A stretch of DNA of 64,000 nucleotides from Candidatus Altimarinota bacterium. Its GTDB lineage: Bacteria > Patescibacteriota > Gracilibacteria > JBDHUY01. Below are positions 3,541-50,392 of this stretch, in pieces; position 1 is the stretch's first letter; the number at the start of each line of letters is the position of its first letter. The notes beneath the pieces are model-generated. The model ran no database searches. It saw only the letters and a program-made list of their open reading frames with translations, and was not told the origin of the DNA. The stretch spans positions 2,132 through 66,131 of the forward strand of contig JBDHUY010000011.1 of assembly GCA_039809385.1 (NCBI GenBank). Reading direction: 5' to 3'. The position numbers and the translations under genes are program-made.

Positions 3541-6141
3541 CTATTTCCTGGCCGGTTTCTTGACCGGTTCTTCTTTTTCCTGTCCCATACTTTCGGCCCA
3601 GCGACGGATTTTATCTTCGACGATCTCACGACTCTTTCCGTAGCGCTCCCTGGATACTTTTTGGACCTTGTCTTTTTGCAGATCGGCATTTTCTACTTTC
3701 ATCGGCGGAAACGTATTGGCAGAAAAGGTGTTTGTGGGCATGTTATCGACCAGCATTTTCAGATACACGAAACCGCGGGGAAGCTGGAGCAAATCCTTGG
3801 GCAGGATCTCCTCGTTAAACTGGCTTTGCAGATATTCGGCATCGTCAAAACCAACCTGAAACGAGACCATCGAACCGACATTGCCAAAGACCGCGTCGCG
3901 TACCTCTTCAGGCATCTGAGCGATATATTGGTTCGCAATAACCAGGTTTAAACGATACTTGCGGGCTTCGGACAGGATTGTGGCGAAAGCGTTGGTGGCA
4001 AAATTCTGAAACTCGTCCACGTACAGGTAAAAATCGTTACGGTCCTTTTCGGCCATATCGGCCCGGCTCATGGCATCCAGCTGAAAGCGCGTGACAAACA
4101 TCGAGCCCAGCAAGGCGCTGTTATCTTCGCCGATCTTGCCTTTGGACAAGTTTACGATGACGATCTTCTTGTTATCCATCGCCCAACGGATCTGAAAAGC
4201 TGATTTGGGTTGTCCCAGAATATTACGGATGATCGAACTGGATAAAAACTGTCCGACCTTGTTCTGGATCGGAGAAATCGCTTCGATTCGCTGTTTATCG
4301 GACATTTTATTATACTCGCTCACCCAGAAATTCTTAACCAGAGGATCGCTCACCTTGGCCACCACCTTTTCGCGGAAATCGTCGTCAGTGAGTATTCGCA
4401 TGATTGCCAGCATGGTCGAATTGGGATATTCGAGCAAGGACAGGATAGTGTTACGCAAAATATATTCCAGGCGCGGGCCCCACGAATCGGCATACAGTTT
4501 TTTAAAGACGCCAACCAGTCCCGACGCCACCAGATTGCGCTGCTCTGGACTGACTTGCTCGATCATATTGAACGCCAGCGGGTACTGCACGTCGGACGGA
4601 TCGAAGACGATCACATCGTTGGTACGTTTCGCCGGCACGAAACTCATCGCCTTCTCGGCCAGATCGCCGTGGGGATCGATCACCGCCAGACCATTGCCGT
4701 TTTGAATATCGGCATAGATCATATTCTCCAACAAAGTCGACTTTCCCATACCGGTTTTACCAATGATATACAGATGCCGGCGGCGATCTTCGCGTTTCAT
4801 ACCAAAAGGTTTACGCTGATCGCGGAAATTGCTTTCGCCTAACGGCGTGACTTCCGGATTGCCGGCCGTTAGAAGCGGAACCTTCTGGGGAGGCGCCAGA
4901 GTCTTAGAGGTGATAACGGCAATATTGTGAACTTCGATCGTACTGATCGGCAGATGAAAGACCGAGGCCAGTTCCTCTGCATTCAGAATAAAGGCCGGGT
5001 CCATTGCCCGGTTCAGGGCAGCGCTCAGAATAAGCTGCCGGTTGCGATTGGTGGAAACGATTTTGAACCCGTTCAGGTGCGGCAAATTAAATTGCTTGAA
5101 ACTTCCGGCGATTTCCCGCACTTTCGATTCGGCGGCACGCATATCGGCGTTATCGGTCGCATAAACGATCCGGATCGCTACTTTAAAGCCAAGCTTGGCG
5201 ATTTTGCCCAGCATCGAATTTTTGATCGTATCGTCCCGAATCTCTTCACCGCGCTGAATTTTCTCCAGTTCGTCCAAAGCCGAAGAGTCTTTGGGCAGAA
5301 AAGCACGAATGACGTTCCGCAAGATGGCGAAAGGGAAGAGCAGGATAGTTATACCTTTGAGCAGAAGCTCATTCTGCATGCTCCATTGTAAAAACGCCAG
5401 ACGCATCTTGGATGCGAAAGACGAAGCGTTCGAAGCTAATTGAATATGCCGTAAACCGGCTTTGTGCCAATTGTCCGCCAAGGGCGAAAAAATGATCTGT
5501 ACTACCGCCTTGTCTTCGGCCTGATGAAGTTTGGAAAGAGAAGAGACGATTCCGGAGAGCGAATCATAGGTTTTCTTGGCGATCGCATCCTCAAACTGCC
5601 GGTACTTTTTGATCGGATAAACATACGGCTCCTGAAGGGATAATTTAGCGCTGATAAGGGATTTTTTCTGTGTCAGCGTTTCTCCGTAATCTTTGCGTTC
5701 GTAAATTTCGATATCCGGATACTGGGCATACAGTTGGCTTTCAAACAACTCTTTCAGATCGGAACGGATCCATACGTAAAATCGTATTAAATCGCCGAAA
5801 TTGGCTATTTCGATACTGATACGCGGCTGCACGTCGCCAAACCAGCGGCTGACAGAATTTCTTTTCTGATAGATACTGTGCAGACTGGAGAAGACCTGTT
5901 CGGCCGCCAAAGGGCCGCGTTGCTCTTCTTCGCTGTTTTTGGAAACGATAATTTCCAGCAGAATATGATCATGTGCCAGTTCCTCACCCCGTTTCAGACG
6001 TTGCCGCTGAAAAAGCGATGTAAGCCCCAAAACTACCACAATTCCATAGATACTAAGCAGAAGCCACACTATTGCCATACATACATTACAAGATACGGTA
6101 ATTTGGGGAGAATTTACAACCCAAGGACTATTATCCGGCAA
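3541..6141 (-). CDS. Membrane-anchored P-loop ATPase of the FtsK/HerA superfamily, TraG/TraD/VirD4 (T4SS coupling-protein)-like
   Basis: N-terminal TM (MAIVWLLLSIYGIVVVLGLTSLF). Walker A 'IIGKTGMGKSTLLENM', Walker B 'FYLYVDEFQNF', and 'EARKYRLNLVIANQ' arginine/Q motif. Confidence 0.7.
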   Translation of the reverse strand: MPDNSPWVVNSPQITVSCNVCMAIVWLLLSIYGIVVVLGLTSLFQRQRLKRGEELAHDHILLEIIVSKNSEEEQRGPLAAEQVFSSLHSIYQKRNSVSRWFGDVQPRISIEIANFGDLIRFYVWIRSDLKELFESQLYAQYPDIEIYERKDYGETLTQKKSLISAKLSLQEPYVYPIKKYRQFEDAIAKKTYDSLSGIVSSLSKLHQAEDKAVVQIIFSPLADNWHKAGLRHIQLASNASSFASKMRLAFLQWSMQNELLLKGITILLFPFAILRNVIRAFLPKDSSALDELEKIQRGEEIRDDTIKNSMLGKIAKLGFKVAIRIVYATDNADMRAAESKVREIAGSFKQFNLPHLNGFKIVSTNRNRQLILSAALNRAMDPAFILNAEELASVFHLPISTIEVHNIAVITSKTLAPPQKVPLLTAGNPEVTPLGESNFRDQRKPFGMKREDRRRHLYIIGKTGMGKSTLLENMIYADIQNGNGLAVIDPHGDLAEKAMSFVPAKRTNDVIVFDPSDVQYPLAFNMIEQVSPEQRNLVASGLVGVFKKLYADSWGPRLEYILRNTILSLLEYPNSTMLAIMRILTDDDFREKVVAKVSDPLVKNFWVSEYNKMSDKQRIEAISPIQNKVGQFLSSSIIRNILGQPKSAFQIRWAMDNKKIVIVNLSKGKIGEDNSALLGSMFVTRFQLDAMSRADMAEKDRNDFYLYVDEFQNFATNAFATILSEARKYRLNLVIANQYIAQMPEEVRDAVFGNVGSMVSFQVGFDDAEYLQSQFNEEILPKDLLQLPRGFVYLKMLVDNMPTNTFSANTFPPMKVENADLQKDKVQKVSRERYGKSREIVEDKIRRWAESMGQEKEEPVKKPARK

Positions 6142-21343: not shown

Positions 21344-22219
21344 ATGAACAAAGAAAATTCGATCATTATTTTCAATCAAAAAAACGTGCGGAGACATTGG
21401 GATGCAGATAAGGAACTTTGGTATTTTTCGGTTATCGATGTGATTGAGGTATTAACCGATTCAGCGGCACCAAGGCGGTATTGGAGTGATCTAAAAATCA
21501 AGTTGAAAAATGAAGGAAGTGAAGTGTACGAAAAAATCGTACAGTTGAAATTGACCGCTTCTGATGGGAAAAAACGAGAGACGGACTGTTTCTCGACCGA
21601 AGATCTATTTCGACTCGTTCAATCCATTCCTTCTCCAAAAGCAGAGCCCTTCAAGGTTTGGTTAGCAAAAGCGGGATATGAGCGTGTTGAAGAAACTGAA
21701 AATCCCGAACTATCCATTGATCGAGCTATGAAGACCTATTTGCAAAAAGGATATTCAAAGGAATGGATCAATCAACGGCTGAAAAGCATCGAGGTTCGCA
21801 AAGATTTGACGGATGAATGGCAGGAAAGAGGTGTACAGGAAGGACAGGAATACGCTATTTTGACCGACGAAATTACACGTGCCTGGGCTGGTTTTAGTGT
21901 CAAGGAATATAAAGAGTTTAAGAGCCTCGAAAAACAGAATTTGCGGGATAATATGACCAATCTCGAGCTGGTTTTGAATATGCTTGCCGAAGCCACAACT
22001 ACGGAAATTTCCAAGAAAAAACAACCCACAGGTTTTCATGAGAGTCGTATTGTAGCAAGAGAGGGCGGCGAAATAGCAGGTACTGCACGAAAGGGAATTG
22101 AACAGAAAACCGAGGAGAAAGTTGTCTCAAGGAAGAATGCTAAAGATCTGCTCATAAGAATTAAAGCACAAAAACAGTTGTCCAAAAAATTGAAGGACGG
22201 TAAAGAGAAAGAAGATTGA
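21344..22219 (+). CDS. Bro-N/antirepressor-like (DinD/RhuM-type) DNA-binding protein
   Basis: 'IFNQKNVRRHWDADKELWYFSVIDVIEVLTDS..PRRYWSDLK' is a Bro-N-like N-terminus. The C-terminus is charged and helical. Confidence 0.6.
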   Translation: MNKENSIIIFNQKNVRRHWDADKELWYFSVIDVIEVLTDSAAPRRYWSDLKIKLKNEGSEVYEKIVQLKLTASDGKKRETDCFSTEDLFRLVQSIPSPKAEPFKVWLAKAGYERVEETENPELSIDRAMKTYLQKGYSKEWINQRLKSIEVRKDLTDEWQERGVQEGQEYAILTDEITRAWAGFSVKEYKEFKSLEKQNLRDNMTNLELVLNMLAEATTTEISKKKQPTGFHESRIVAREGGEIAGTARKGIEQKTEEKVVSRKNAKDLLIRIKAQKQLSKKLKDGKEKED

Positions 22220-22294: not shown

Positions 22295-22369
<75 letters not shown>

Positions 22370-36425: not shown

Positions 36426-36806
36426 TCAGACCTCATCGACCCATGAATATAAAAGCTCGCGGGATACTTTTTCCGGCAGCCAATGTGTAAGGACTTCCGG
36501 GGAACAGATAAGCTGATATTGATCTTCGTAGAAAGGAGTATCGATGTCTGGCAAGACATAAACCCAGAGTTCACCCTGAATTACCGAAATATGCCAGTCG
36601 AATAATCCGGATTCCAGATATTTCTTCCATCCCTGTTTCTTCCAGAACGAGATCGCGCCTGGAAAGTCCTGTCCCCGCCGGGGCAACCACGAACCGTCGG
36701 GTTTGTGATTTCTGCGCGGATCATCGCGAGGGCAGAACTCGTCGACTGCCTGATAGAGACCAAGACACTTTCCCTTATTTTTGACGATAAACCGTACCAG
36801 CGCCAT
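36426..36806 (-). CDS. Hypothetical protein (Trp-rich, soluble)
   Basis: 126-aa ORF, last gene of the co-directional cluster. Confidence 0.45.
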   Translation of the reverse strand: MALVRFIVKNKGKCLGLYQAVDEFCPRDDPRRNHKPDGSWLPRRGQDFPGAISFWKKQGWKKYLESGLFDWHISVIQGELWVYVLPDIDTPFYEDQYQLICSPEVLTHWLPEKVSRELLYSWVDEV

Positions 36807-36818
36807 GAGGAGAGGCAG

Positions 36819-37730
36819 TTAAGCAGACTGTATCTTCTGTATCAAAATTTTATACAGTAATTGTCGGAAAAAACCGAAAGGAACGCGATCCTGACCACTC
36901 ACAGTATCCAGCACCAGATTAAGTACTTCCCCATGTTCAATGACTCCTGCGGCCAGCTGGGTCAAACTGTGATCATCAAGAAGAGTTTTATTAGTAGATT
37001 TCATGATCAGTAAGATTTCTTGGTACCTTCCTTTGGCAAGACACAAGGACCATAGAAGAGACCAAACATAGTCGGGAGCGTTGATTTCTCTGCAAACTTT
37101 AATTACACCCGAAAAATCATCTTTGGAAAAGTCCCGCTGCTTAAAAGTGGTATCTATCAGATGTGAAAATTCGTGCTGGGGTAAAGAAGTGGCGACAGCA
37201 ATTGAAAAAGCGATAACGTAATCTCTATTCTCCAGAAATCTATCTGCTAGACCAACCGCCATTGGCTGTGAAAAGCCGGCCGGCTGCACGATACGCAAGA
37301 TATCAGAAGTATTGAAAATAGAGCAGGGACTAATATTTTTGTGATTTGCATACGCAAAATAGAGATCGAAGATTTCCATATATTTTTCTTCTTGGTATTG
37401 TCGTTCTTTGGCAATATGGAGTAGTGTCTCAATAGAAACAAGGTCCTTTTTTTGTAACATATAGTACCAGACCAGGTCGAGGTCATTGGTAGACACAGGG
37501 CCTAATTCTTGTAACTCTTCCAGAGAAAAATGAGAAGTTTTACGGTTCCTCAAATAGCTGATCAAATCAGCCGATGCGTTTTTTTCCGCATCTTTCATTC
37601 TCTGCATTTTTGGAGAATATTTATTTTCATAGGGCTCTCTTCTATCCGGCTGTTCTGGATTTGTCATAAGAAAACTGGTTATATACTCAATAGTTCTATT
37701 AATCCCGGGAAGTTTCGACAAACGACTCAT
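36819..37730 (-). CDS. Hypothetical helical protein
   Basis: 303-aa ORF, visibly AT-rich, no TM, no recognised motif. Confidence 0.5.
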   Translation of the reverse strand: MSRLSKLPGINRTIEYITSFLMTNPEQPDRREPYENKYSPKMQRMKDAEKNASADLISYLRNRKTSHFSLEELQELGPVSTNDLDLVWYYMLQKKDLVSIETLLHIAKERQYQEEKYMEIFDLYFAYANHKNISPCSIFNTSDILRIVQPAGFSQPMAVGLADRFLENRDYVIAFSIAVATSLPQHEFSHLIDTTFKQRDFSKDDFSGVIKVCREINAPDYVWSLLWSLCLAKGRYQEILLIMKSTNKTLLDDHSLTQLAAGVIEHGEVLNLVLDTVSGQDRVPFGFFRQLLYKILIQKIQSA

Positions 37731-37852
37731 CCAACTGTATCTGACTGTTAAAGGAATTCACACAGGTTTTTTAGGGCCTATATGAGAATTCATTGAGAAC
37801 CAAAATAAACTACACAGAACAGTGATAATAACTCATGAAAAACAAGAAATCA

Positions 37853-38491
37853 TTATTGAGTAGCCAATAATTTCATTTTTGTTCTGATTGTCTCTGCAGC
37901 GGTTTGATCTGGGAGATCAACAACAAGTTCTAAAACATCTTTCATATCTTGAGGAGATACCGTTTTTTTTACCATTGCCGTAACAATCATATCGTACTCT
38001 ATTGCGCTATCAGGATCCCACGGGTGGTAGGTATTAAAAAATTTCTTTAATTCTGGAATCGAACCGATCTTATGATCAAGCACAAATTTCAGTGCTTGTC
38101 TTACGAGGACAGTACAAGCTGGATTCTCACTAAACTGATAGTCCCAGTATTCACCAAGAGCAGTTTTAAACGTTTCAATAGAACTTACATCCTTGAGAAA
38201 TTTTTCGCCTAAAAACATCAAAGCCTCGGGAGCAAGATGTACTTTAGCGAAAAGGTTTAAATGTAGTTTATCTTGAGAAGACAAAGCTTTCAGTAGAGCT
38301 AATTGTGTGGCACTATCTGGAGGACAAAAGCGAAGAAAAGCAGTTAATAAGTCATTAGATGAGAATGTTGATAATTTATCTAGAGACATTTCACCTGCAA
38401 AGAGAGCAAGTGCTGTTGGGTTTCCAAATAAGTTGCTGACGTTTTCAAATTTTGTATCAAGAATAGTTGTTTGAATATCGGTTCCTTCCAT
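37853..38491 (-). CDS. Hypothetical helical protein
   Basis: 212-aa ORF, AT-rich, 24 nt downstream of the PKD gene. Confidence 0.5.
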   Translation of the reverse strand: MEGTDIQTTILDTKFENVSNLFGNPTALALFAGEMSLDKLSTFSSNDLLTAFLRFCPPDSATQLALLKALSSQDKLHLNLFAKVHLAPEALMFLGEKFLKDVSSIETFKTALGEYWDYQFSENPACTVLVRQALKFVLDHKIGSIPELKKFFNTYHPWDPDSAIEYDMIVTAMVKKTVSPQDMKDVLELVVDLPDQTAAETIRTKMKLLATQ

Positions 38492-40940: not shown

Positions 40941-41115
40941 GGGCTGTCAGCGGCCAGTGATCAGCGGTCAGTGGCGGGCCATTAGCATTCATACATCATA
41001 CATCTGTTCTCTTAACTCCTGTCTTGCTGTTGTCAGTCGTCTGTAGGCTGTAAGCTGTCAACGTCAATCATATTCCCTACTCCTAACTCCGTTCTCCCAA
41101 CTCCTGTCTTGCTCC
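40941..41115. repeat. Continuous heptad-register spacer (about 24 units)
   Basis: tcagcgg|ccagtga|tcagcgg|tcagtgg|cgggcca|ttagcat|tcataca|tcataca|tctgttc|tcttaac|tcctgtc|ttgctgt|tgtcagt|cgtctgt|aggctgt|aagctgt|caacgtc|aatcata|ttcccta|ctcctaa|ctccgtt|ctcccaa|ctcctgt|cttgctc. Confidence 0.85.
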
Positions 41116-41119
41116 CCGA

Positions 41120-44100
41120 TCACTCCGAGTGAAGCGAAGAGTCTGTCTCCTGCCCATGCTTATTGGGCCCATTATACGGCAAATTCGGTTTCTTTTGAAA
41201 GGGCTTTGCACCGAACTTTTTATAGGGAGGAGTTGGGCGAGTAAACGGCCGTTGAGAGGAAGAAAGCTGTTTCGTATTGTTATTATTCCCGGGCGGCAGT
41301 TCGGGGAAATTTTGTCCGGGCGGCAGTTCCTGCTCGGCGAAGCGTCCTTTGATTTCGGGAGTATTGAAGTTCGGTTTCGGCGGAAACTTTTTAGGATAGG
41401 GTTTATACGGTTTTTTTTGAAATGGCTTTTTTGACTTCCACGGTTGCGAGGATGTTGGTTTCGACACAGGTTTTTGCGCTTCGGGGGAAGATGGCACCTC
41501 AGGCAAAGTAGTCTCGGAAACCGGGGGGAGATTTGCATCTACGACAGGTGCAGGAGGAGGCAGGGCATCCGGTGTACCTGCAGTACCGGTCGGCTGGTCT
41601 GCACTGTCTGCAACAAGAGGTTCAAACGGAGACGTGGCAATGCCGGAAGTAGGCGGCAGGGAATCGGAGTTGAGAGATCGATCTGGAACAGATGACGCCG
41701 GTTCAGTAGGCGTCAAAAAATCAGGTATGGCGGCATCGGCCGGTTGAGAGACTGGCAGAGGTGTAGGAGGAAATATGCCAAAAGGATCGTCGTTAACAGT
41801 AGGAAAGGAAGAACCGGCAACGGCAGGCGAATCTGAGAAGGAGGGCATGGCCGGAGTTTGAGCAGATGTTGGAGATACTACCCCAGCGAAAGGATCTGGG
41901 GTTGTCGAAGAAGAGGACGTCGAGGCTGCAGGTTGATCTCCGAAAATATCGATATCAAACGGAGAGGCCGGAACACTCGGATTAGACGGGGCAGGATCTA
42001 AGAAAGAGGGAGTAACCGCGGCTGAGGTGGCAAAAGGATCGACGGCTTGCGGAGGAGATGCCGGAGGGTTCTGATTTTTATCGGTACTTCCGAAAATATC
42101 AATATCAAAGGGCGATGGAGATGGAGGCGCGGGAGTATCAAGAAACGTAGAGGGTGTTGGCGGCAACGCCGAACCGAACGGATCGGATGCAGAAATAGAC
42201 TGCGGATCACTCGCACTCGGTCCGGATGAAAAGATATCGGTGTCGAAAGGAGAAGCAGGGCTTGCGGAAGACGTCGGATTCGGGACAGATGTATTCAGAA
42301 AATCAGGCTGGGGCGAAGCAGCAGCTCCAAATGAGCCGGTTTGCTGGTTGGAAGAACCGAAAATATCAATATCAAAGGGCGAAGGTGTTTGCGAAGGGTT
42401 TCCTGTCGCTGCGGATAGTGAAGGTGAAGGTGATGGTGTTGACGCAGCAAATGGATCGCCCGGTGCAGAAGGCTGCGAATTATTTCCCGGTCCGCTTTGA
42501 GAAAAAATATCCGTATCGAAAGGAGAAGAGGCGCTGATTCCGGGAGTAGGCGCATCCCCAAAAGGAGTTGCTCCGGAGGCGACAGGTGGATCTAAAAAGG
42601 AAGGCAAGCTTGCGGAATCGTCGGGAGACGTGCCGGGAGACGGCGGGGAGAAATCCAGAAAAGACGCTGTAGGCGGCGTGCCAGACTCTGGGGAAACAAC
42701 AGGATTTGCAGCAGGCGGAACTGTCCCTTCACTCGAATCAGTCGCTCCTATCTGAAGCCAATCGGGCATCTGGCCTGCCGAAGCCTGAGGAGGTTCGGCA
42801 GGGGTCGCGGGAGCTGGAGGCTCGGCAACTGGTTCGAAGTTCCCATCGGGAGAAGGAATCGGTGTAACGTCGATGACCGAAGGTGGGGTACTCTTGGGAG
42901 GTTCGGGCTTCGAAGATGCCTGAGCTTGGTCGCCTTCGTCTTTTTTACCTGGCCTGAATCGAGAGATCCAACCGGTTACCATACCCCGCAAATCCAGAAT
43001 AAACTCTTCAAAATCGAGATCTTCCCGGTTGGTAATACGTTTATACGCTATAAACGAAACAAACAGCACGATTCCCAGAAACAGGAAAATGCCGATAATC
43101 CAAAGCGCGAACTGCAAAATACCGAAGAGAAAGGACAAAAACAGATTTTCCCCTGCCGGTGCGGGTGATGAAGGGCCTTCTGCTGCTGCTCCGTTTTGAT
43201 TCTCGTTGGTAACAGTGCCCGGTTCCGCATTAAGATTGTCATTGGTATTGGCAGTTTCGGGAGCATTGAGGTTTAGATTAGCATCGCCGTTCTGATTAGA
43301 ATTAGCCGTAAGCACGGGAGTCAGAGAGTCGGCAATCACCAAAAGTACGTTACCTACTTGCTGTTTGGCATCGTCAGGTAATTTCTGACTTTCGGCAACA
43401 GCCGTGCGAGTCTCGTCCAAAGCCTGGGAAACCGCGGCAGCATCGATTCCGTAATTCGACTTAAGCGATATCAGCGCTTTATTGACTTTTATTTTGGTCA
43501 AAGGTTCGGCCTCGGCAATAATATTTTTGATACGCTGAATCGAAGAATCGATATCGATAAACGATTCTTTCAGGTCTAAAATGTTCTGGATATTACCGAC
43601 CAGACGGTCTCTTTGTTCTTGAGTAAGCTGTTCTGCGCGCAGGACCAGCTCCTTGGCCTGTGTCAGTGCGTCCTTGTCACCGCGGGATAGGAGTTCGCGG
43701 ATCTGGTTCTGTAGCTCCTGGGACAGAGAACTCTGCGAGATGGCCGTAACAGCATCGTCGAGATTTTTATTGATAATTTCGGTTTTGGAAGGCTGCGGAT
43801 TAGCATTGAGATTGGCATTTTCGGGCAGGACGACCGCGTCGTCGAAAATAATGGGAACCGTTACCTGATCCATGATATTGTTATCGCCGACAACGGTAAG
43901 CTGTACCTCGATCGGCTGAGGCAAAAAGGTATACGATATGCCCGAACCATTGGTAAAAGAAAGGGTATTTTTATTGTCGATATCGTTATTTTTGATACCG
44001 TCTCCGTCGCTATCCTGAAAAACATTGCGATCGATGCGGTATTCGCGGATTTTACCGATCGAATAACCGCCAAAGAACGTTACCTTGTTTTTTTCACGGG

Positions 44101-47100
44101 TGAGGTGAATCTTCCGGTCAAGTTCATTTACTTCGGGGACGGTAATCAATACAGCCTGTAACGATTTAGACGGATCAAGTTGGACATTCTTAGGCAACTG
44201 CCCTTTGACCAGCGTAACGGTTCGAACTACGTTGTCTTTTATTCCTCCTTTGCCCGTGACGTCGAGTCGCACCTGATAGCTGCCATAGTCGTTAAACGTA
44301 AATTGAGGATTTTCCTCCTGGCTGTCTTTGTCATTTTGAGCGCTGCCATCACCGTCGCTGTCACGCGAAAGATCGAAGTCCCAAGTATAAGAAAGAGGGG
44401 CAGGGCCGCTGGAATTATTGAGAAACAGAACAGTTTTATCGACCTGAGTAAACAGAAAAGCGGCAGTGGCAATACTTTCGGAACGGGGGTTAATCAATAC
44501 CGAAACGTTGCCCTTGTTGCTCAATCCTTGATATTCGACCCGGGCAGTCACATTGTAATTTCCCGGAGTATCGTACACTCGCGTGACATAAGCCCCCGAC
44601 GTCGTATCTTCGAAAGTTCCGTTCCCGTCAAAGTCCCAGGAAATCCGGGCATCGGGAACCGGTTCGCCTTTCGCGTTCCGACCGATCGCGGTAAACTGAA
44701 CCGCTTCGCCAGCCTTGACGCTGGTTTTATTAACGCTGACCTCTACCTGCAGGGGCTCGTTAGCACGGTTTGTTACGGTCAATACTCCGGTATTTTCGCC
44801 CAGCACATCATCGCTCCGCACAACCGCCCCCTCGTTATCGGTCATTTCGACGACAAAACGATAGGTAACGCTCTGACCGCCAAAACCGCGCGTAGGAATA
44901 TTAAACGTGGTAGAAGGAGTGGTAGTAGTACGCACGCTCAGATTTTCTTCGGTACCGTTTTCGACATAAAACCATTTATACGAAACGATTTTGCCGTCAC
45001 GGTCGGTTGCCCCCACGGCACGCACGGCGACTTGCACCGGAGTCAATAGCGACGCAGGCGCGTCCAATACCAGATCGGTGAGCTGAGGAGGCCGGTTGCG
45101 TACAGCGACCAGAAGGGGCGAAGCACTGGCAGTTTTACCCGAATCTCTGTCGGTAATCGTAAGTTGTACCGAAAAACAAGTATTGCCGGACACGTCGTTA
45201 AAACGGTGCGTAATCGTTTTTTTGGTACTGACGGTTCCGTCGCCGAAATTCCAGGAATATTCCAGAAAGCGGCTGGAGCCGTCACGGTTGATAGCACGCG
45301 AAGCGTCAAAACTGGGATTATCGTTACGGGAAATCAGGAGCCCCGGCCCGCCGTTACACAAATTAGGCGTAAGCGGTAACATTTCACCGTTCAAACTATA
45401 GTCGATCAAGGCTACGGGGCTGTCGGCTTCTCCGACATACACATTGGTCGTGGTCGTAGTATCGTTATTATCTTTGTCAAAAACGGTAACTTTGACAGGG
45501 TAAACCCCGGCTGTCTTGAAACGATAGGTATATTGCGTTTTATCCGTCTGCTCTTTCTGTTCACCGAAATCGTAAAGATAAAAGATGGCACCGGGAGCAT
45601 TGACTTTGACGGTAACGTCTTTGCCAACCTGAGTGACCGGCGGATCGATCGTGACATCGGCGCTGAGTACTGATGTAATCGAGACAGTCTGCTCCCGCTC
45701 CACGAAATTTTGCGAAGAATCGGTCACGCGTAATTTTACACGGTATTCTTTGGCTGCCGGAAAACGATATTCTCCCCGGCTGCCGGCCTCGTTCGTATTT
45801 TCCAGCGTAACCGGTGTACCATCTACCAGCCAGGTAAACGAGAGCGTTTCATTTTGATCGGGATCATAAGAATTAGTCGCGTCAAAGACAAACTGATTTG
45901 GATGTCCGACATCTTTCTGTTTGAGAGACAAAGTAACAACCGGCGGCTTGGAAGTCACTTTGACTTGACGAGTATCCTGAACGGTTTTGCCGTCATTATC
46001 CGTGACTTGGAGCAAAGCCGTATAGACACCCGGCGTCTCGAATTTGTAAGTAAAGCTTTCTTCTTTCGTCTCGCGCAGAACTTCACCCGCTCCGGTCGTG
46101 ATTTTCCAGCTGAGCGAATTGACTCCGCTGGGGATCTTTGACGTATTGGCGGCAAAACGGAACGTCGTATCGGTAGTACCTTCTTGGGGGGTAATTGTGG
46201 CCGAGGCGATCGCATCGGCCACCTCGACCGTTATACTTTTGACGATCTTTTGATTTCCGGTATCCGTGAACTGGACCGCAACCTGGTAACGACCGACTTT
46301 GTTATATTTATGCGTTATCGAAACCGGCGTTCCGTTAAAACTCTGACGATTACTGCCATCGCCAAATTCCCAGTCGGTTTTGGCGATATCGAGTCCCACG
46401 GTCGAGCTGGTGCCGGCAGGATCGAAGAGCAGCCCGTCCTGAGCTTCTTTGAGGGTTACTTTGACGAGATCTTCTTGGGTAACATCGACTTGATTGATTT
46501 TTAGCTGAACTGTCGCCAGGGGTGCTTCGGCTTTGACGCTGATGGTAGCATCCCCGGGCAAAACGACACTGTCGCCGCTGGCACTCTTGACTTCCAGATG
46601 CACCACATACGTATTAGGAACCCGAAAGGTTTCCGAGACGTTGGCACCGTTTCCTAAGTCGCGGCGCTGCCCGCTGGAATCGAGATACCACCAGCTGTAA
46701 TTGTTCGTAGGAATCGTATTGTTGGTCGGATCGGAAGAAGAGGCTCCGTTAAAGAGAACAGTGAGCGGAATTGGCCCGGAGCTTTTACTGGCATTGATTA
46801 CCGCACGCATCTGAGGCAGTTTGACTACCTGCTGCTTGAGAGTCTCGATTTTGGTTTGAATGTCACGACCGGTCGAAGAAGAAGGACTTTGCTGGTAAGT
46901 CTGCAGTGCGTCGTCCAGTTCCTGAGCAGCTTGTCCTGCCTGAGAGGTAGGAGGTAATTGTTGAATGATCGGCTGAAGTTGCTCACGATAACGGTCGATA
47001 ATTGTTTTGGATTCGCTTTGGGGACGAGAGCGTAACTCTTGCAACAACTGGCTCAAAATCCGATCCAAATCCTGGGCGGTATTACCGGTAGCGCTGGTAA

Positions 47101-47986
47101 CTCCCCCACTCGAGGAAGTTCCCTGACCGGCATTTAACAATTGTTCCAGTGCGTTCAAAGCTTTTTTCAGATCGTCACTATTTTGAGGACTGGGATTGGT
47201 CTTGAATTTGTCGAGCGCCTGTAAAACCGCCTGTAACTGCTGGGCCGACGCATTCTGGAGCGACGAATCAAGTTGCTTTATGGTAGTCTGTAACTGAGTT
47301 TTAAGTGCGTCGATTTCGCGTTCGAGAGTACCGGTATCGGCGGGCGGATTATTGACGGTGTTATAAATATTATTAATCGTGGGTGCGGCCGGATTGCTGC
47401 CAGTACCGCTACTGCTCCCCGAGGAGCTGGAAGAAGAAGACGATCCGCTTCCCGAAGAACCTGAAGAAGAGCTCGAGGCATTTGAGCCCGAAGAAGAGCT
47501 TGAACTGCTGGTGTTGGTAGAAGTGCTACTACCGGATGGCGGACCGTCGATAACATTGACGAAAAAATTGACGATAGCATAGGAGATCAGAATAATCACG
47601 ATGCCGACGCCGGTAAACACGATCGTCTTTTGAGATTTCTTGACCTCGCCGTCGTTGCCGGCAAAGGCTACCATGCGGAACCCGGCGTAGATTACGATAA
47701 CGACCGCCAACAGCCCCAGAAATGTCAGAAAATAGTTGATGATCGTGGTGACGGCTTTGCGAATCTCGTCGTTTTTTCCCTGTTCGCAAATCGTCGGAAA
47801 TTTCACGCAATCTTCTTCTTCAAGGCCGGGCCCGGTCGGAACACCGTTAAACTGAGCGGAAGCATGCGGAATATGCAAAACAAAGAGCGTTCCAGCCATC
47901 AGCACTAAAAATAATACTCCCTGCAGGCGCCGAAAAAGCGAGGAAAAACGATTCGACAAGTACTGTGAGTTATAATCAAACGACAT
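41120..47986 (-). CDS. Giant (2288 aa) surface protein: signal peptide, pilin-like hairpin module, Ser-rich linker, coiled coil, about 10 PKD/Ig-like domains, membrane anchor, long disordered Pro/Ser-rich tail
   Basis: Single uninterrupted ORF. N-terminal 'AVTTIINYFLTFLGLLAVVIVIYAGFRMVAFAGNDGEVKKSQKTIVFTGVGIVIILISYAIVNFFVNVI'. PKD cores (DWEFGDGS, YSWNFGDGT, ISWDFDGNG, YTWDFDLS...). TM 'FLSFLFGILQFALWIIGIFLFLGIVLFVSFIAYKRI'. Confidence 0.9.
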   Translation of the reverse strand: MSFDYNSQYLSNRFSSLFRRLQGVLFLVLMAGTLFVLHIPHASAQFNGVPTGPGLEEEDCVKFPTICEQGKNDEIRKAVTTIINYFLTFLGLLAVVIVIYAGFRMVAFAGNDGEVKKSQKTIVFTGVGIVIILISYAIVNFFVNVIDGPPSGSSTSTNTSSSSSSSGSNASSSSSGSSGSGSSSSSSSSGSSSGTGSNPAAPTINNIYNTVNNPPADTGTLEREIDALKTQLQTTIKQLDSSLQNASAQQLQAVLQALDKFKTNPSPQNSDDLKKALNALEQLLNAGQGTSSSGGVTSATGNTAQDLDRILSQLLQELRSRPQSESKTIIDRYREQLQPIIQQLPPTSQAGQAAQELDDALQTYQQSPSSSTGRDIQTKIETLKQQVVKLPQMRAVINASKSSGPIPLTVLFNGASSSDPTNNTIPTNNYSWWYLDSSGQRRDLGNGANVSETFRVPNTYVVHLEVKSASGDSVVLPGDATISVKAEAPLATVQLKINQVDVTQEDLVKVTLKEAQDGLLFDPAGTSSTVGLDIAKTDWEFGDGSNRQSFNGTPVSITHKYNKVGRYQVAVQFTDTGNQKIVKSITVEVADAIASATITPQEGTTDTTFRFAANTSKIPSGVNSLSWKITTGAGEVLRETKEESFTYKFETPGVYTALLQVTDNDGKTVQDTRQVKVTSKPPVVTLSLKQKDVGHPNQFVFDATNSYDPDQNETLSFTWLVDGTPVTLENTNEAGSRGEYRFPAAKEYRVKLRVTDSSQNFVEREQTVSITSVLSADVTIDPPVTQVGKDVTVKVNAPGAIFYLYDFGEQKEQTDKTQYTYRFKTAGVYPVKVTVFDKDNNDTTTTTNVYVGEADSPVALIDYSLNGEMLPLTPNLCNGGPGLLISRNDNPSFDASRAINRDGSSRFLEYSWNFGDGTVSTKKTITHRFNDVSGNTCFSVQLTITDRDSGKTASASPLLVAVRNRPPQLTDLVLDAPASLLTPVQVAVRAVGATDRDGKIVSYKWFYVENGTEENLSVRTTTTPSTTFNIPTRGFGGQSVTYRFVVEMTDNEGAVVRSDDVLGENTGVLTVTNRANEPLQVEVSVNKTSVKAGEAVQFTAIGRNAKGEPVPDARISWDFDGNGTFEDTTSGAYVTRVYDTPGNYNVTARVEYQGLSNKGNVSVLINPRSESIATAAFLFTQVDKTVLFLNNSSGPAPLSYTWDFDLSRDSDGDGSAQNDKDSQEENPQFTFNDYGSYQVRLDVTGKGGIKDNVVRTVTLVKGQLPKNVQLDPSKSLQAVLITVPEVNELDRKIHLTREKNKVTFFGGYSIGKIREYRIDRNVFQDSDGDGIKNNDIDNKNTLSFTNGSGISYTFLPQPIEVQLTVVGDNNIMDQVTVPIIFDDAVVLPENANLNANPQPSKTEIINKNLDDAVTAISQSSLSQELQNQIRELLSRGDKDALTQAKELVLRAEQLTQEQRDRLVGNIQNILDLKESFIDIDSSIQRIKNIIAEAEPLTKIKVNKALISLKSNYGIDAAAVSQALDETRTAVAESQKLPDDAKQQVGNVLLVIADSLTPVLTANSNQNGDANLNLNAPETANTNDNLNAEPGTVTNENQNGAAAEGPSSPAPAGENLFLSFLFGILQFALWIIGIFLFLGIVLFVSFIAYKRITNREDLDFEEFILDLRGMVTGWISRFRPGKKDEGDQAQASSKPEPPKSTPPSVIDVTPIPSPDGNFEPVAEPPAPATPAEPPQASAGQMPDWLQIGATDSSEGTVPPAANPVVSPESGTPPTASFLDFSPPSPGTSPDDSASLPSFLDPPVASGATPFGDAPTPGISASSPFDTDIFSQSGPGNNSQPSAPGDPFAASTPSPSPSLSAATGNPSQTPSPFDIDIFGSSNQQTGSFGAAASPQPDFLNTSVPNPTSSASPASPFDTDIFSSGPSASDPQSISASDPFGSALPPTPSTFLDTPAPPSPSPFDIDIFGSTDKNQNPPASPPQAVDPFATSAAVTPSFLDPAPSNPSVPASPFDIDIFGDQPAASTSSSSTTPDPFAGVVSPTSAQTPAMPSFSDSPAVAGSSFPTVNDDPFGIFPPTPLPVSQPADAAIPDFLTPTEPASSVPDRSLNSDSLPPTSGIATSPFEPLVADSADQPTGTAGTPDALPPPAPVVDANLPPVSETTLPEVPSSPEAQKPVSKPTSSQPWKSKKPFQKKPYKPYPKKFPPKPNFNTPEIKGRFAEQELPPGQNFPELPPGNNNNTKQLSSSQRPFTRPTPPYKKFGAKPFQKKPNLPYNGPNKHGQETDSSLHSE

Positions 47987-48007: not shown

Positions 48008-48457
48008 TTATCCCCGTACCGCATTGATCACGGTAGTGACCAGAGCATACGCTATCAGAATAATGATAATACCGGTTAGAATGGCGATGATCAGTTTTGT
48101 CGCTTTTTGGCGATTACCTTCATTATTAAACGATGTGATATACAAAACGCCGGCATAAATAATACCTACTACCGCAATTAGGAAAATGAATCCCAGACCA
48201 AACTGAATCCATCCGAAAATCAACGCGCGGGCATTGGTTGTAGTTGAGACATTTCCCGACAACTCGTTCTTCGTCGCATCGATTCCGGGCTGGATACCGC
48301 ATTCGTCTCCCTGGCAATAGGGATTTTTACTATCGAAAGCCGTATCGGTATTGGAAAAATCCGTATTCTGGGCATGCACGTTCAGTGGTACATGTATCGT
48401 CGACAGCATGCTCCATATAAAGATCATTGCTCCTATGTGAATAATCTTTTTATTCAT
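48008..48457 (-). CDS. T4SS-pilin-like (TrbC/VirB2-like) protein, single module
   Basis: Signal peptide, then 'LIFGWIQFGLGFIFLIAVVGIIYAGVLYITSFNNEGNRQKATKLIIAILTGIIIILIAYALVTTVINAV'. Confidence 0.7.
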   Translation of the reverse strand: MNKKIIHIGAMIFIWSMLSTIHVPLNVHAQNTDFSNTDTAFDSKNPYCQGDECGIQPGIDATKNELSGNVSTTTNARALIFGWIQFGLGFIFLIAVVGIIYAGVLYITSFNNEGNRQKATKLIIAILTGIIIILIAYALVTTVINAVRG

Positions 48458-48524
48458 TTTGATCGAGTATAAACGCCAAATTATTCAGAAAATTATACCA
48501 TATACATCCTCTTCTATACAACGA

Positions 48525-49433
48525 CTATCCCGAATTTAACAACGGTGCGGCAAAAAAGGTGACGATAGTATAGGCGCTGACCAGCAATGCCAGTCCCAAT
48601 ACTACCCACAGGATGGTTTTGCGCGCCTTTTGAACTTTTTGATCGTTCCCAAAATTCACGATCATGTTGATGGCGGCATAGAGCAGCATCAATATTCCCG
48701 AAATCGCGCTGAAACCGAGGATATAATTGACGACTTGCAATACCAGACTAATCGCGCCGGACGGATTGGGATTAACCGAAGTTTCACCGTAGAAATTCTG
48801 AATGAGCGGGCGCGCTATCAAAATCACAATCAGACCGAATGTCGTTGGAATAAATACCCGTTGTAATTTTTTGATCCGGGCCTCGTCGCCCAGGGCCGTG
48901 ATCATGCGTACCCCGCTGATAATGATCACAAAAACGGCGGTGATTGCCAGAAAACTGAGGAAAAAACTCAGGAGCGGATTGACTATCCGTTCGCGAATGT
49001 CGTCCGGAAAATCGCGGATATCGTTGACGGAACGTCCGCTTGGCGTAAAGAAGATTGAGACGATGACCTCAGCTACTTGCATGAGGATCAGACCGAACAG
49101 CAAAATAAAAATACCGGTCAAACTTTTTTTATTCGCATCGGCATTACCGCCGGCGGTCACCATCCGCAATCCCGATATGATGATGAGCAACACGGCTATT
49201 ACCGCGATAAAACTTTTTACCACTCCGGCATAGTAGATCAGAATATCCCGAAGTCCCTGGGCGCCTTCGGTGCTGACCGGAGCATTAAAGGCTTGATCGG
49301 GAGTACCTAAAAGAAAATCAAAAACACTACGCGGATCTTGCTGGGCATAGGTCGCCGGGAGAGCCACACAGCAAAATGCCAATCCTGCCAAAACAAGCGC
49401 TACTGCCAATGGAAAAGAAAAACGCTGTTTCAT
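48525..49433 (-). CDS. Membrane protein with three tandem pilin-like hairpin modules
   Basis: Signal peptide plus 3 units. Examples: VVKSFIAVIAVLLIIISGLRMVTAGGNADANKKSLTGIFILLFGLILMQV and VVNYILGFSAISGILMLLYAAINMIVNFGNDQKVQKARKTILWVVLGLALLVSAY. Confidence 0.7.
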   Translation of the reverse strand: MKQRFSFPLAVALVLAGLAFCCVALPATYAQQDPRSVFDFLLGTPDQAFNAPVSTEGAQGLRDILIYYAGVVKSFIAVIAVLLIIISGLRMVTAGGNADANKKSLTGIFILLFGLILMQVAEVIVSIFFTPSGRSVNDIRDFPDDIRERIVNPLLSFFLSFLAITAVFVIIISGVRMITALGDEARIKKLQRVFIPTTFGLIVILIARPLIQNFYGETSVNPNPSGAISLVLQVVNYILGFSAISGILMLLYAAINMIVNFGNDQKVQKARKTILWVVLGLALLVSAYTIVTFFAAPLLNSG

Positions 49434-50392
49434 AATATTATAGGTGCGGCAAATTTCAGAACTTCGGTAACTACCGTATAGGCAGAATAGATGATCACCA
49501 TAGCAATCAGCGTTCCCTGGACTATTTTGATCCCTTTCGTGCGCAGGGAATCGTTCGCTCCCGAAAAGATAAAATAAAATCCGCCCAGGATTAGTCCGGC
49601 AAATCCGATCGGGACAACAAAAAGAAGCATTAAACGCAGCAGGGATCCGATCACCCCGTGACCTCGTTCGACATCGCCTTCGAAAGCGATACGCTGGAAT
49701 TCTCCGGCCAGGGCAATCACGATCAACCCCAGAATACTCCAGAGTATTTGGCGACGGTACTTCGCGGCAGCATCATCGGCACCGCTGGCACTACTGATCA
49801 CGATTTGGTATCCGCTGATAATAATCGATACGATCGCGACGGTCCCGGCAATGCCCCTCAACGCCGTGATAACGATGCTGATAATATTTTTCCAGTCGAA
49901 CAAACTGGGTTCGTTGAGGCCGGCGCGGGGGACAAACGAGGCGAAAAAGAACTCTCCGACATTCAGGAAGATAAACCCGACCACGGCGTACAAAAGTCCC
50001 AAACGCGCTTTTTTACTGGCTTCGTCGTTAGCGGAAAAGACCATCCGGATACCGAAAAAAAGTATATAAAAAACCGCAACTCCCTGAAACAATATCCGGG
50101 TTGTCGGCAAGGCTTGATTGCGTACAAAATCGTTAAACGTATTATTCCCGTTCGTCGAATTTAATTCCGGTAAACTGGTACCCGGCAGATCAAAAGCTGC
50201 CTGGGTGAGAAAGGGGATCGTAAAAATTCCCGCAATAAAGAGAAAAACCGCTAGGACAAAGAATATGTTCTGCGCTGATCTGGCATTTTTTTCCGAAAGA
50301 AAAGCAGCAAATCGATTTCCCGGAGATCGTAAAACGAAATTCTTCGGAACATGTACGGGTTGGCGACTATGTTTTTGGTATGTGTATTGCAT
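49430..50392 (-). CDS. Membrane protein with three tandem pilin-like hairpin modules
   Basis: 3 units. Examples: VAVFYILFFGIRMVFSANDEASKKARLGLLYAVVGFIFL and FAGLILGGFYFIFSGANDSLRTKGIKIVQGTLIAMVIIYSAY. ATGA overlap with the next gene. Confidence 0.7.
   Translation of the reverse strand: MQYTYQKHSRQPVHVPKNFVLRSPGNRFAAFLSEKNARSAQNIFFVLAVFLFIAGIFTIPFLTQAAFDLPGTSLPELNSTNGNNTFNDFVRNQALPTTRILFQGVAVFYILFFGIRMVFSANDEASKKARLGLLYAVVGFIFLNVGEFFFASFVPRAGLNEPSLFDWKNIISIVITALRGIAGTVAIVSIIISGYQIVISSASGADDAAAKYRRQILWSILGLIVIALAGEFQRIAFEGDVERGHGVIGSLLRLMLLFVVPIGFAGLILGGFYFIFSGANDSLRTKGIKIVQGTLIAMVIIYSAYTVVTEVLKFAAPIIL

Follow-up and report, generated by a model that had tools for sequence, protein, structure and literature searches.

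The 64,000-nucleotide window analysed here (contig JBDHUY010000011.1 of assembly GCA_039809385.1) encodes a giant surface protein of 2288 amino acids from an ultra-small, Peregrinibacteria-like bacterium of the candidate phyla radiation (CPR) from activated sludge. The middle of its C-terminal tail, which is about 600 residues long, is regarded with moderate confidence as a multivalent array of short linear motifs (SLiMs), specific to its lineage, in an intrinsically disordered, cytoplasmic chain. The motifs are real, non-random and under selection, the tail that carries them is predicted to be disordered and predicted to be cytoplasmic, and a sister lineage uses the same motif vocabulary. Motif binding, the identity of a partner and the avidity mechanism considered below we infer from the sequence. 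The gene and the elements of the array are located as follows:

41120-47986, minus strand: gene of the giant membrane protein, 2288 residues in a single 6,867-nt open reading frame (ORF), with Pfam matches to PKD_4 (1.6e-56) and PKD (4.9e-40) and with full-length orthologues P0003 and P0004
41618-42667, minus strand: full acidic-aromatic motif array, residues 1774-2123, given by the Phe contexts of the acidic block
42500-42526, minus strand: core 1, SPFDTDIFS, residues 1821-1829
42356-42382, minus strand: core 2, SPFDIDIFG, residues 1869-1877
42227-42253, minus strand: core 3, SPFDTDIFS, residues 1912-1920
42089-42115, minus strand: core 4, SPFDIDIFG, residues 1958-1966
41939-41965, minus strand: core 5, SPFDIDIFG, residues 2008-2016
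41777-42457, minus strand: span of the five DPF[AG] motifs at residues 1844, 1935, 1983, 2031 and 2067 (42446-42457, 42173-42184, 42029-42040, 41885-41896 and 41777-41788)

The core SPFD[IT]DIF[GS] occurs five times in frame, with starts at residues 1821, 1869, 1912, 1958 and 2008, that is, 48, 43, 46 and 50 residues apart. Motifs of the form xF[LS][DN] are present at residues 1776, 1797, 1896, 1948, 1995 and 2050. Translation thus bears out the preliminary description of this DNA, in which five such cores, interleaved with DPF[AG] and xF[LS]D motifs, had been reported; the spacing is 43-50 residues. The cassette consists of SPFD[IT]DIF[GS], about 20 residues, DPF[AG], about 10 residues and xF[LS]D. 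It is not complete in each unit, as had been claimed: in unit 2, DPF is replaced by SFG and FLD by FLN, and unit 1 lacks FLD. The interval 41900-42560 originally assigned to the array does contain motifs, but the motif field is wider and extends over 41618-42667. All 29 Phe residues of the acidic block of the tail (residues 1690-2165) stand beside or near an acidic or small residue, and 28 of them fall within the array, in the few contexts [SDT]PF, DIF[GS], xF[LS][DNT] and SFG.

Such an accumulation is not expected by chance. The acidic block contains five DPF (0.51 expected), five D[IL]F (0.17 expected) and five F[LS]D (0.49 expected), and these counts were reached in none of 5000 composition-preserving shuffles. 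At the DNA level, the degenerate pattern CCNTTYGAYAYNGAYATHTTY has five matches in the window, where 100 shuffles predict 0.00, and beyond these five copies the core pattern is absent from every frame of the window. The DNA consensus quoted earlier fits the three Ile-type cores but not the two Thr-type cores, which use other codons. Where the tail is covered, its pieces are reproduced with zero differences by contigs of four public activated-sludge or wastewater runs, and the identity across three independent studies indicates that the sequence is real and not an assembly artefact. The same comparison, made in search of population variation in the tail, therefore yielded no usable polymorphism. 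Four other-frame ORFs of 80-150 residues overlap the tail (41083-41538 and 42295-42561 on the minus strand, 42226-42537 and 42240-42500 on the plus strand); since it is the long frame that orthologues conserve, they are by-products of biased composition and repeats.

The protein consists, in order, of a signal peptide, a hairpin similar to the pilins of type IV secretion systems (T4SS), a Ser-rich and coiled-coil region, about eight PKD domains, a helical stalk, a transmembrane helix and the disordered tail. Its parts outside the array and the PKD region are the following:

47561-47752, minus strand: N-terminal T4SS-pilin-like two-helix hairpin, residues 79-142, two hydrophobic helices and a basic loop, kept in all relatives
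43031-43153, minus strand: single C-terminal transmembrane helix, residues 1612-1652, a helix in the AlphaFold2 (AF2) model with predicted local distance difference test (pLDDT) values of 89-95, Kyte-Doolittle hydropathy 2.88, Lys/Arg on its C-terminal side
42956-43021, minus strand: juxtamembrane helix DLDFEEFILDLRG..., residues 1656-1677, a helix in the AF2 model from residue 1659 to 1677, with D, F, E, E and L invariant in the alignment of relatives
42746-42766, minus strand: PDWLQIG motif, residues 1741-1747, W and L invariant, P[DSV]WL in every relative
41123-41491, minus strand: basic Lys/Pro/aromatic C-terminal block, residues 2166-2288, 22 Lys/Arg and 8 Asp/Glu

The N-terminus has the architecture of VirB2/TrbC-type pilins (signal peptide, two hydrophobic helices, basic loop), with both profile scores of the hairpin below threshold: 20.1 bits against Pfam PF18895 (cut-off 26.6 bits) and 32.3 bits against NCBIfam NF045849, a pilin-like conjugal transfer protein (cut-off 40 bits). 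Hydropathy analysis revealed four hydrophobic segments, namely the signal peptide, the two hairpin helices and the one C-terminal transmembrane helix. The PKD region is accordingly predicted to lie outside and the last 600-640 residues or so in the cytoplasm, a placement deduced from the topology usual for VirB2 and from the positive-inside rule. The earlier prediction of a cytoplasmic tail agrees with these hydropathy segments and with the Lys/Arg residues on the tail side of the last helix. The tail had also been taken to be disordered, and in the single-sequence AF2 model, in which the transmembrane and juxtamembrane helices are confident, the chain after residue 1690 or so has pLDDT below 50 and zero secondary structure. 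The tail has no Pfam or NCBIfam match, and a PDB sequence search gave no match.

The tail is rich in Pro (21%), Ser (16%), Ala (10%) and Thr (8%) and has the character of a block polyampholyte: the acidic block contains 50 Asp/Glu, 4 Lys/Arg and the 29 Phe, and it is followed by the basic block. The exact peptide KPFQKKP occurs twice in the latter, 74 residues apart (41408-41428 and 41186-41206, the second at residue 2261). The Lys/Pro-rich basic segment noticed earlier, KPFQKKPYKPYPKKFPPKP, is indeed present at residues 2187-2205, but it is not the end of the tail, as a further 83 residues follow. The basic block could bind nucleic acid or acidic lipids, or could serve as a positively charged C-terminal signal of the T4SS type.

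Comparison of the units indicates that the array is old. The nine-codon cores share 76% nucleotide identity, and their pairwise codon differences comprise 40 synonymous and 12 non-synonymous changes. The linkers have a nucleotide identity of 0.60, compared with 0.57±0.009 for shuffled linkers, and Tandem Repeats Finder (TRF) detected no repeat at the unit period of about 140 nt. The recent simple DNA duplication considered as an alternative in the preliminary description is rejected on these three grounds. Cores 1 and 3 (SPFDTDIFS) have the codon signature TCT CCT TTC ... TTT TCN in common, and cores 2 and 4 (SPFDIDIFG) the signature TCG CCC TTT GAT ATT GAT ATT TTC GGN. This pairing of units 1/3 and 2/4 indicates that a double unit of about 91 residues was duplicated long ago, and speaks against unit-by-unit growth.

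With residues 1395-2288 as query, an exhaustive HMMER search over 1.84 billion representatives retrieved six proteins in all, the query and P0002 to P0006, all of them giant and pilin-fused; the contig collection contains no record of the exact 2288-residue protein. The full-length orthologues P0003 (2125 residues) and P0004 (1863 residues) are 34-37% and 31% identical to the query, respectively. P0005 (2910 residues) and P0006 (3672 residues) have different, non-PKD ectodomains and keep the pilin-like N-terminus and the C-terminal module. A metagenome scan for DFEE[FY][IV]Lx[LM] added three loci, L026, L027 and L028, none with an array of Phe motifs. One member of a relative's cluster is annotated as Candidatus Peregrinibacteria. 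Common to all relatives are the transmembrane helix, the DFEE[FY][IV]L juxtamembrane helix with its invariant DFEE..L core and, 40-110 residues downstream of this core, the P[DSV]WL motif. It is these elements, and not the SPFDIDIF array, that the family has conserved on the cytoplasmic side. The N-terminal hairpin and the C-terminal module (window positions 42746-43153) travel together even with non-PKD ectodomains; the two may pack against each other within the membrane, where the basic loop of the hairpin would face the acidic juxtamembrane helix.

The motif vocabulary recurs in one relative. The tail of P0003 contains three DDIFG, a TDIFG, one SPFDFDFG, three DDLF[AG] and four DPFA, clustered by type and without interleaving; its SPFDFDFG reads clearly as the counterpart of SPFDIDIFG. 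Enrichment is again evident, with seven D[ILF]F against 0.29 expected and four DPF against 0.45 expected. This tail has 8 Lys/Arg in 407 residues and no basic block; a basic C-terminal stretch comparable to that of the window protein is found in P0002 and L026 (GKKKRYYRPPYRNKNKNN). Motif conservation in the sister lineage was assessed with P0003, P0007 and P0008, which form one cluster at 90% identity and whose tails lie at 5-7.7 kb of locus L023. Variable columns amount to 5 of 72 in motifs and 67 of 338 elsewhere (Fisher p=0.0096), and four of the five variable motif columns result from the absence of exactly one 18-residue DPFA unit from P0007, showing that motif copy number differs between close strains by unit-precise indels. 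Per 100 columns, 10-34 are variable in the tail and 0-7 in most ectodomain blocks. The earlier proposal that motifs are kept while linkers drift is thus upheld both within the window protein and in its sister lineage. Since P0003 shares the motif types, the vocabulary predates the split of the two lineages and is selected, with number, order and spacing left free. Retention of a vocabulary together with freedom of number, order and spacing is typical of the evolution of short linear motifs.

Outside this family, a DNA scan of 185,579 species-representative genomes for the exact motif PFDIDIFG gave 22 single matches, all rejected as out of frame or as lying within folded unrelated proteins (for example a methionine-synthase-like protein and a membrane protein), and a scan of viral contigs gave zero matches. 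Since neither scan yielded a true array, the exact motif array is unique to the window lineage in the collections scanned. Three word-indexed protein searches, whose queries were the tail, the stalk together with the transmembrane helix, and the six-sequence alignment, found nothing and are uninformative, because low-complexity words probably saturated their candidate lists.

On the favoured reading of a disordered SLiM array, the three-motif cassette would have been amplified in tandem long ago, a double unit would have been duplicated at one point, and purifying selection would afterwards have kept the motifs alone. Each acidic-plus-Phe element, a weak SLiM, would occupy a hydrophobic, basic-rimmed pocket of a cytoplasmic partner. 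On the cytoplasmic side of the adhesin-like protein, the array would then act through avidity or cross-linking, and the outcome could be the tethering or clustering of some component beneath the membrane at the giant adhesin.

Several observations weigh against this reading. The periodicity that the preliminary description expected of orthologues is largely lacking, as the evenly spaced cassette occurs in none of the five relative clusters, and neither D[ILF]F nor DPF occurs in the tails of P0002, P0004, P0005, P0006, L026 and L028. Four of the five related lineages do without the array, so that its role is dispensable for the core function of the family; with relatives' tails devoid of the cassette, and P0003 similar in vocabulary, it is a lineage- or clade-specific elaboration and not a family feature. 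The sister-lineage comparison involves three close sequences, motif columns defined by ourselves and a modest p value. The AF2 model, from a single sequence, is only a proxy for a disorder predictor, the topology of the tail is a prediction from hydropathy and Lys/Arg distribution, and a search for transcript evidence found no RNA runs.

The main rival explanation, to which we give a low though appreciable probability, dispenses with a folded partner: in a tail of stickers and spacers, the acidic-aromatic stickers would associate with one another or with the basic-aromatic ends of adjacent tails, to form an adhesin patch or condensate under the membrane. The opposed charge blocks (50 Asp/Glu with 4 Lys/Arg, then 22 Lys/Arg with 8 Asp/Glu), the repeated KPFQKKP and the regular spacing of stickers in a Pro/Ser/Thr/Ala matrix would suit such self-association, as would the recurrence of an acidic block followed by a basic end in P0002 and L026 and the fact that no conserved candidate partner was found in the operon. 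It is weakened, however, by P0003, which has the same stickers and lacks the basic block (8 Lys/Arg in 407 residues). Moreover, exact nine-residue cores, SPFDxDIF[GS], are tighter than generic stickers usually need, and the high net negative charge and 21% Pro disfavour homotypic cohesion of the acidic block alone. It is improbable that the array is a functionless by-product, in which slippage or unequal recombination expanded a fast-evolving low-complexity tail and the similarity of motifs reflects shared copy ancestry. The tail is indeed the fastest-evolving part of the protein, its copy number varies (P0007 lacks one unit), most relatives have no array, and units 1/3 and 2/4 are duplicates by codon signature. 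Yet the linkers have become nearly random (0.60 against 0.57), whereas the core peptide is kept through 40 synonymous changes, TRF finds no repeat of about 140 nt, and the motif types persist in the 34%-identical P0003 lineage, invariant among its variants.

Two further explanations place the motifs in another compartment. Pro/Ser/Thr-rich segments are typical of wall-spanning surface proteins of Gram-positive bacteria, and the cytoplasmic placement of the tail is a prediction; the tail could accordingly be extracellular, spanning the wall or facing the host, with its motifs touching envelope or host components. We consider this very improbable, since the chain is outside after the signal peptide and hairpin, as PKD domains normally are, and the one further transmembrane helix brings the tail inside; Lys/Arg residues flank that helix on the tail side, and the same arrangement is found in all relatives. 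Mimicry of endocytic adaptors, in which the transmembrane helix and tail would be inserted, in the way of Tir, into the membrane of a protist host and D[IL]FG and DPF would then bind AP2 or clathrin of that host, is the least credible of all and can be given hardly any weight. It is suggested by a vocabulary and composition matching the intrinsically disordered region (IDR) of AP180, with its DIFGDLFD, DLFGDAF and DPF (PMC11246429), and by an activated-sludge habitat rich in protists. Against it stand a bacterial, CPR-like chromosome together with the bacterial or archaeal nature of the known hosts of cultivated CPR (PMC10633639), the predicted position of the tail in the bacterium's own cytoplasm, the absence of exact FxDxF spacing, the existence of relatives with the transmembrane helix and juxtamembrane module and without motifs, and the lack of evidence of translocation.

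For the favoured SLiM array, candidate partners had been sought in the earlier proposal among the proteins encoded at the end of the operon and in a distant ATPase of 866 residues. The neighbouring genes of the operon are listed below:

48008-50392, minus strand: three upstream T4SS_pilin genes (149, 302 and 320 residues) of the same operon, PF18895 at 45 and 41.6 bits (above the cut-off), with upstream homologues in L023, L024 and L026
38516-40813, minus strand: downstream 765-residue membrane protein with PKD domains (Pfam), the conserved operon partner of the giant protein
36426-38491, minus strand: small genes following the PKD protein (212, 303 and 126 residues), of no Pfam or NCBIfam family

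The conserved core of the operon comprises the pilins, the giant protein and the PKD protein of about 750 residues, with a shared queA flank in one case. The identity of the 765-residue protein to the corresponding neighbour is 45-49% in L023 and L026, 38% in L024/L027 and 34% in L028. Its residues 1-75 form a Pro/Thr/Ser/Gln-rich low-complexity head before the transmembrane helices, which is probably cytoplasmic and lacks Phe motifs. The proposal of partners among the 212-, 303- and 126-residue proteins receives no support, as they have no homologue in the flank of any relative, the motif-sharing P0003 lineage included: the 316-residue gene found downstream at the P0003 locus bears no relation to them, and the operon stops after the PKD protein in L024 and L026. 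The low-confidence model of the 303-residue protein (pLDDT 63) is an all-alpha solenoid of 17 helices, for which Foldseek gave weak generic matches to TPR, PPR and designed-repeat proteins (E >=0.0099, TM <0.4). Such a modelled solenoid would be compatible with a peptide-binding scaffold, and nothing ties the fold to the motifs. The 866-residue ATPase (3541-6141, minus strand) has matches to the coupling-protein families VirD4, TraD and TrwB and to HerA below family thresholds and in its C-terminal half only; its N-terminal 440 residues or so have no family match.

A long Ser/Gly run (…SSSSSSSGSNASSSSSGSSGSGSSSSSSSSGSSSG…) directly follows the hairpin of the giant protein (window positions 47400-47560, residues 143-200 or so), and P0003 has a repeated PSGG(I/V)(Y/F)TN(Q/A)P motif at this position; the run is a second fast-evolving linker, here extracellular. 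The rest of the window is bacterial chromosome, with genes for sigma-70, DnaG, ArgRS, enolase, PNPase, SHMT, MutS, QueA and four tRNAs. A gene with a BRO-N domain (21344-22219, plus strand) adjoins tRNA-Phe (22295-22369, minus strand). BRO-N domains are usual in phages and mobile elements, and this gene may be the remnant of an integrated element. A match to PamR of the CPR Pam pilus (bioRxiv 10.64898/2026.03.03.709456), with E 0.0037 and 16 bits against a cut-off of 300 bits, was rejected as noise of the Ig/PKD fold.

CPR bacteria (Patescibacteria) live attached to hosts, and we know of no account of the connection between their large surface proteins or T4SS-like pilin arrays and the inside of the cell. 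The family described here, with a pilin-like anchor, a huge variable ectodomain and a conserved module of transmembrane helix, DFEE[FY][IV]L and P[DSV]WL, appears to be undescribed. The words "PKD", "giant" and "disordered" do not occur in a survey of Patescibacteria T4SS (PMC12102498), nor do "disordered" and "surface protein" in a transposon-sequencing (Tn-seq) paper, and we found such tails, or pilin fusions of this size, described in neither; literature searches for the motif strings found nothing relevant. A multivalent SLiM array is an already known kind of element, here in a new form on this CPR protein family. The selected nine-residue peptide could serve as bait for the cytoplasmic partner of a CPR surface machine, and the array would be among the few bacterial tandem multivalent SLiM arrays of the type that organises eukaryotic membrane coats. 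These prospects are bounded by an array confined to two narrow lineages, an uncultured organism and a function deduced from sequence. A more far-reaching reading, in our view rather improbable and drawn by analogy, is that of an independently evolved bacterial version of the IDR grammar of eukaryotic coat assembly: arrays of D-[IL]-F-G and DPF, set in an acidic chain rich in Pro, Ser, Thr and Ala on the cytoplasmic tail of a giant pilin-anchored adhesin, would cross-link the tails, or an oligomeric cytoplasmic partner, to form a lattice or condensate beneath the membrane where the CPR cell touches its host. Contacts of the ectodomain outside would then be coupled to assembly inside.

The closest grammar among known systems is that of AP180/CALM, Eps15 and epsin, which, like the window tail, have long acidic IDRs with many D-[LI]-F(G), DPF and Phe motifs, acting in the eukaryotic case as weak, multivalent and partly promiscuous SLiMs. 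The 600-residue IDR of AP180 contains many DLL/DLF as well as DPF and FxDxF motifs, and its DIFGDLFD and DLFGDAF bind clathrin and AP2 weakly and promiscuously (PMC11246429). The five DPF and five DIF of the window tail lie in a similarly acidic, Pro/Ser/Thr/Ala-rich context; however, the Phe residues of its core F-D-[IT]-D-I-F are five positions apart and not four as in FxDxF. Sequence homology is absent, the tail is joined to the transmembrane helix of a surface protein instead of an ANTH, ENTH or EH domain, and the organism is a bacterium without AP2 or clathrin in which Pfam gives only PKD and pilin-like domains for this protein. The eukaryotic adaptors therefore offer an analogy and not a group to which the tail belongs.

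Regularly spaced Phe stickers (IFG, PFG and SFG in the window tail), long disordered spacers and a near absence of basic residues are shared with FG nucleoporins. However, Gly follows only 7 of the 29 Phe residues, and the spacers, with 21% Pro and 50 Asp/Glu, are not rich in Asn/Gln/Gly/Ser/Thr; most of the window motifs need flanking Asp, and the cellular context is not comparable. Bacterial docking peptides, such as QL[SD]LF of beta-clamp ligands, the C-terminal DDDIPF of SSB and the C-terminal D[IV]PxF[LM][RK] of FtsZ, are short acidic or hydrophobic peptides, with Phe or Leu at their end, that dock in hydrophobic pockets. PSFLD is similar to the P-x-F-L core of the FtsZ peptide, and D-I-x-F to the tip of SSB, but the window motifs have neither the leading Gln of the clamp peptides, nor the C-terminal position of the SSB peptide, nor the basic residue that follows FL in FtsZ. 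These peptides also occur once per protein, whereas the window motifs form an array.

The nearest bacterial analogue is found in the attachment organelle of Mycoplasma pneumoniae, whose proteins P65, HMW1, HMW3 and P200 link the adhesins of the surface to structures inside the cell and contain disordered regions of the acidic proline-rich (APR) type; in P65 these have DPN(Q)AY repeats (PMC11940719). The APR regions and the window tail are both cytoplasmic acidic Pro-rich IDRs with a short repeat, linked to adhesins in a host-attached bacterium with a minimal genome, and the likeness is one of composition and function only. The motif is another one, and the tail has no homology to P65, HMW1, HMW3 or the EAGR box. 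The APR proteins are soluble cytoskeletal components, whereas the IDR of the window is the tail of the adhesin-like membrane protein itself. To our knowledge, no terminal organelle is known in CPR bacteria.

A further comparison is with the arrays of 2-11 divergent VirB2-like pilin genes of Patescibacteria (PMC12102498): the gene of the giant protein sits in an array of T4SS_pilin genes and begins with a pilin-like domain. The pilins described there are small, whereas the pilin-like domain of the giant protein is fused to an ectodomain of about 2100 residues, a second membrane anchor and the disordered tail.

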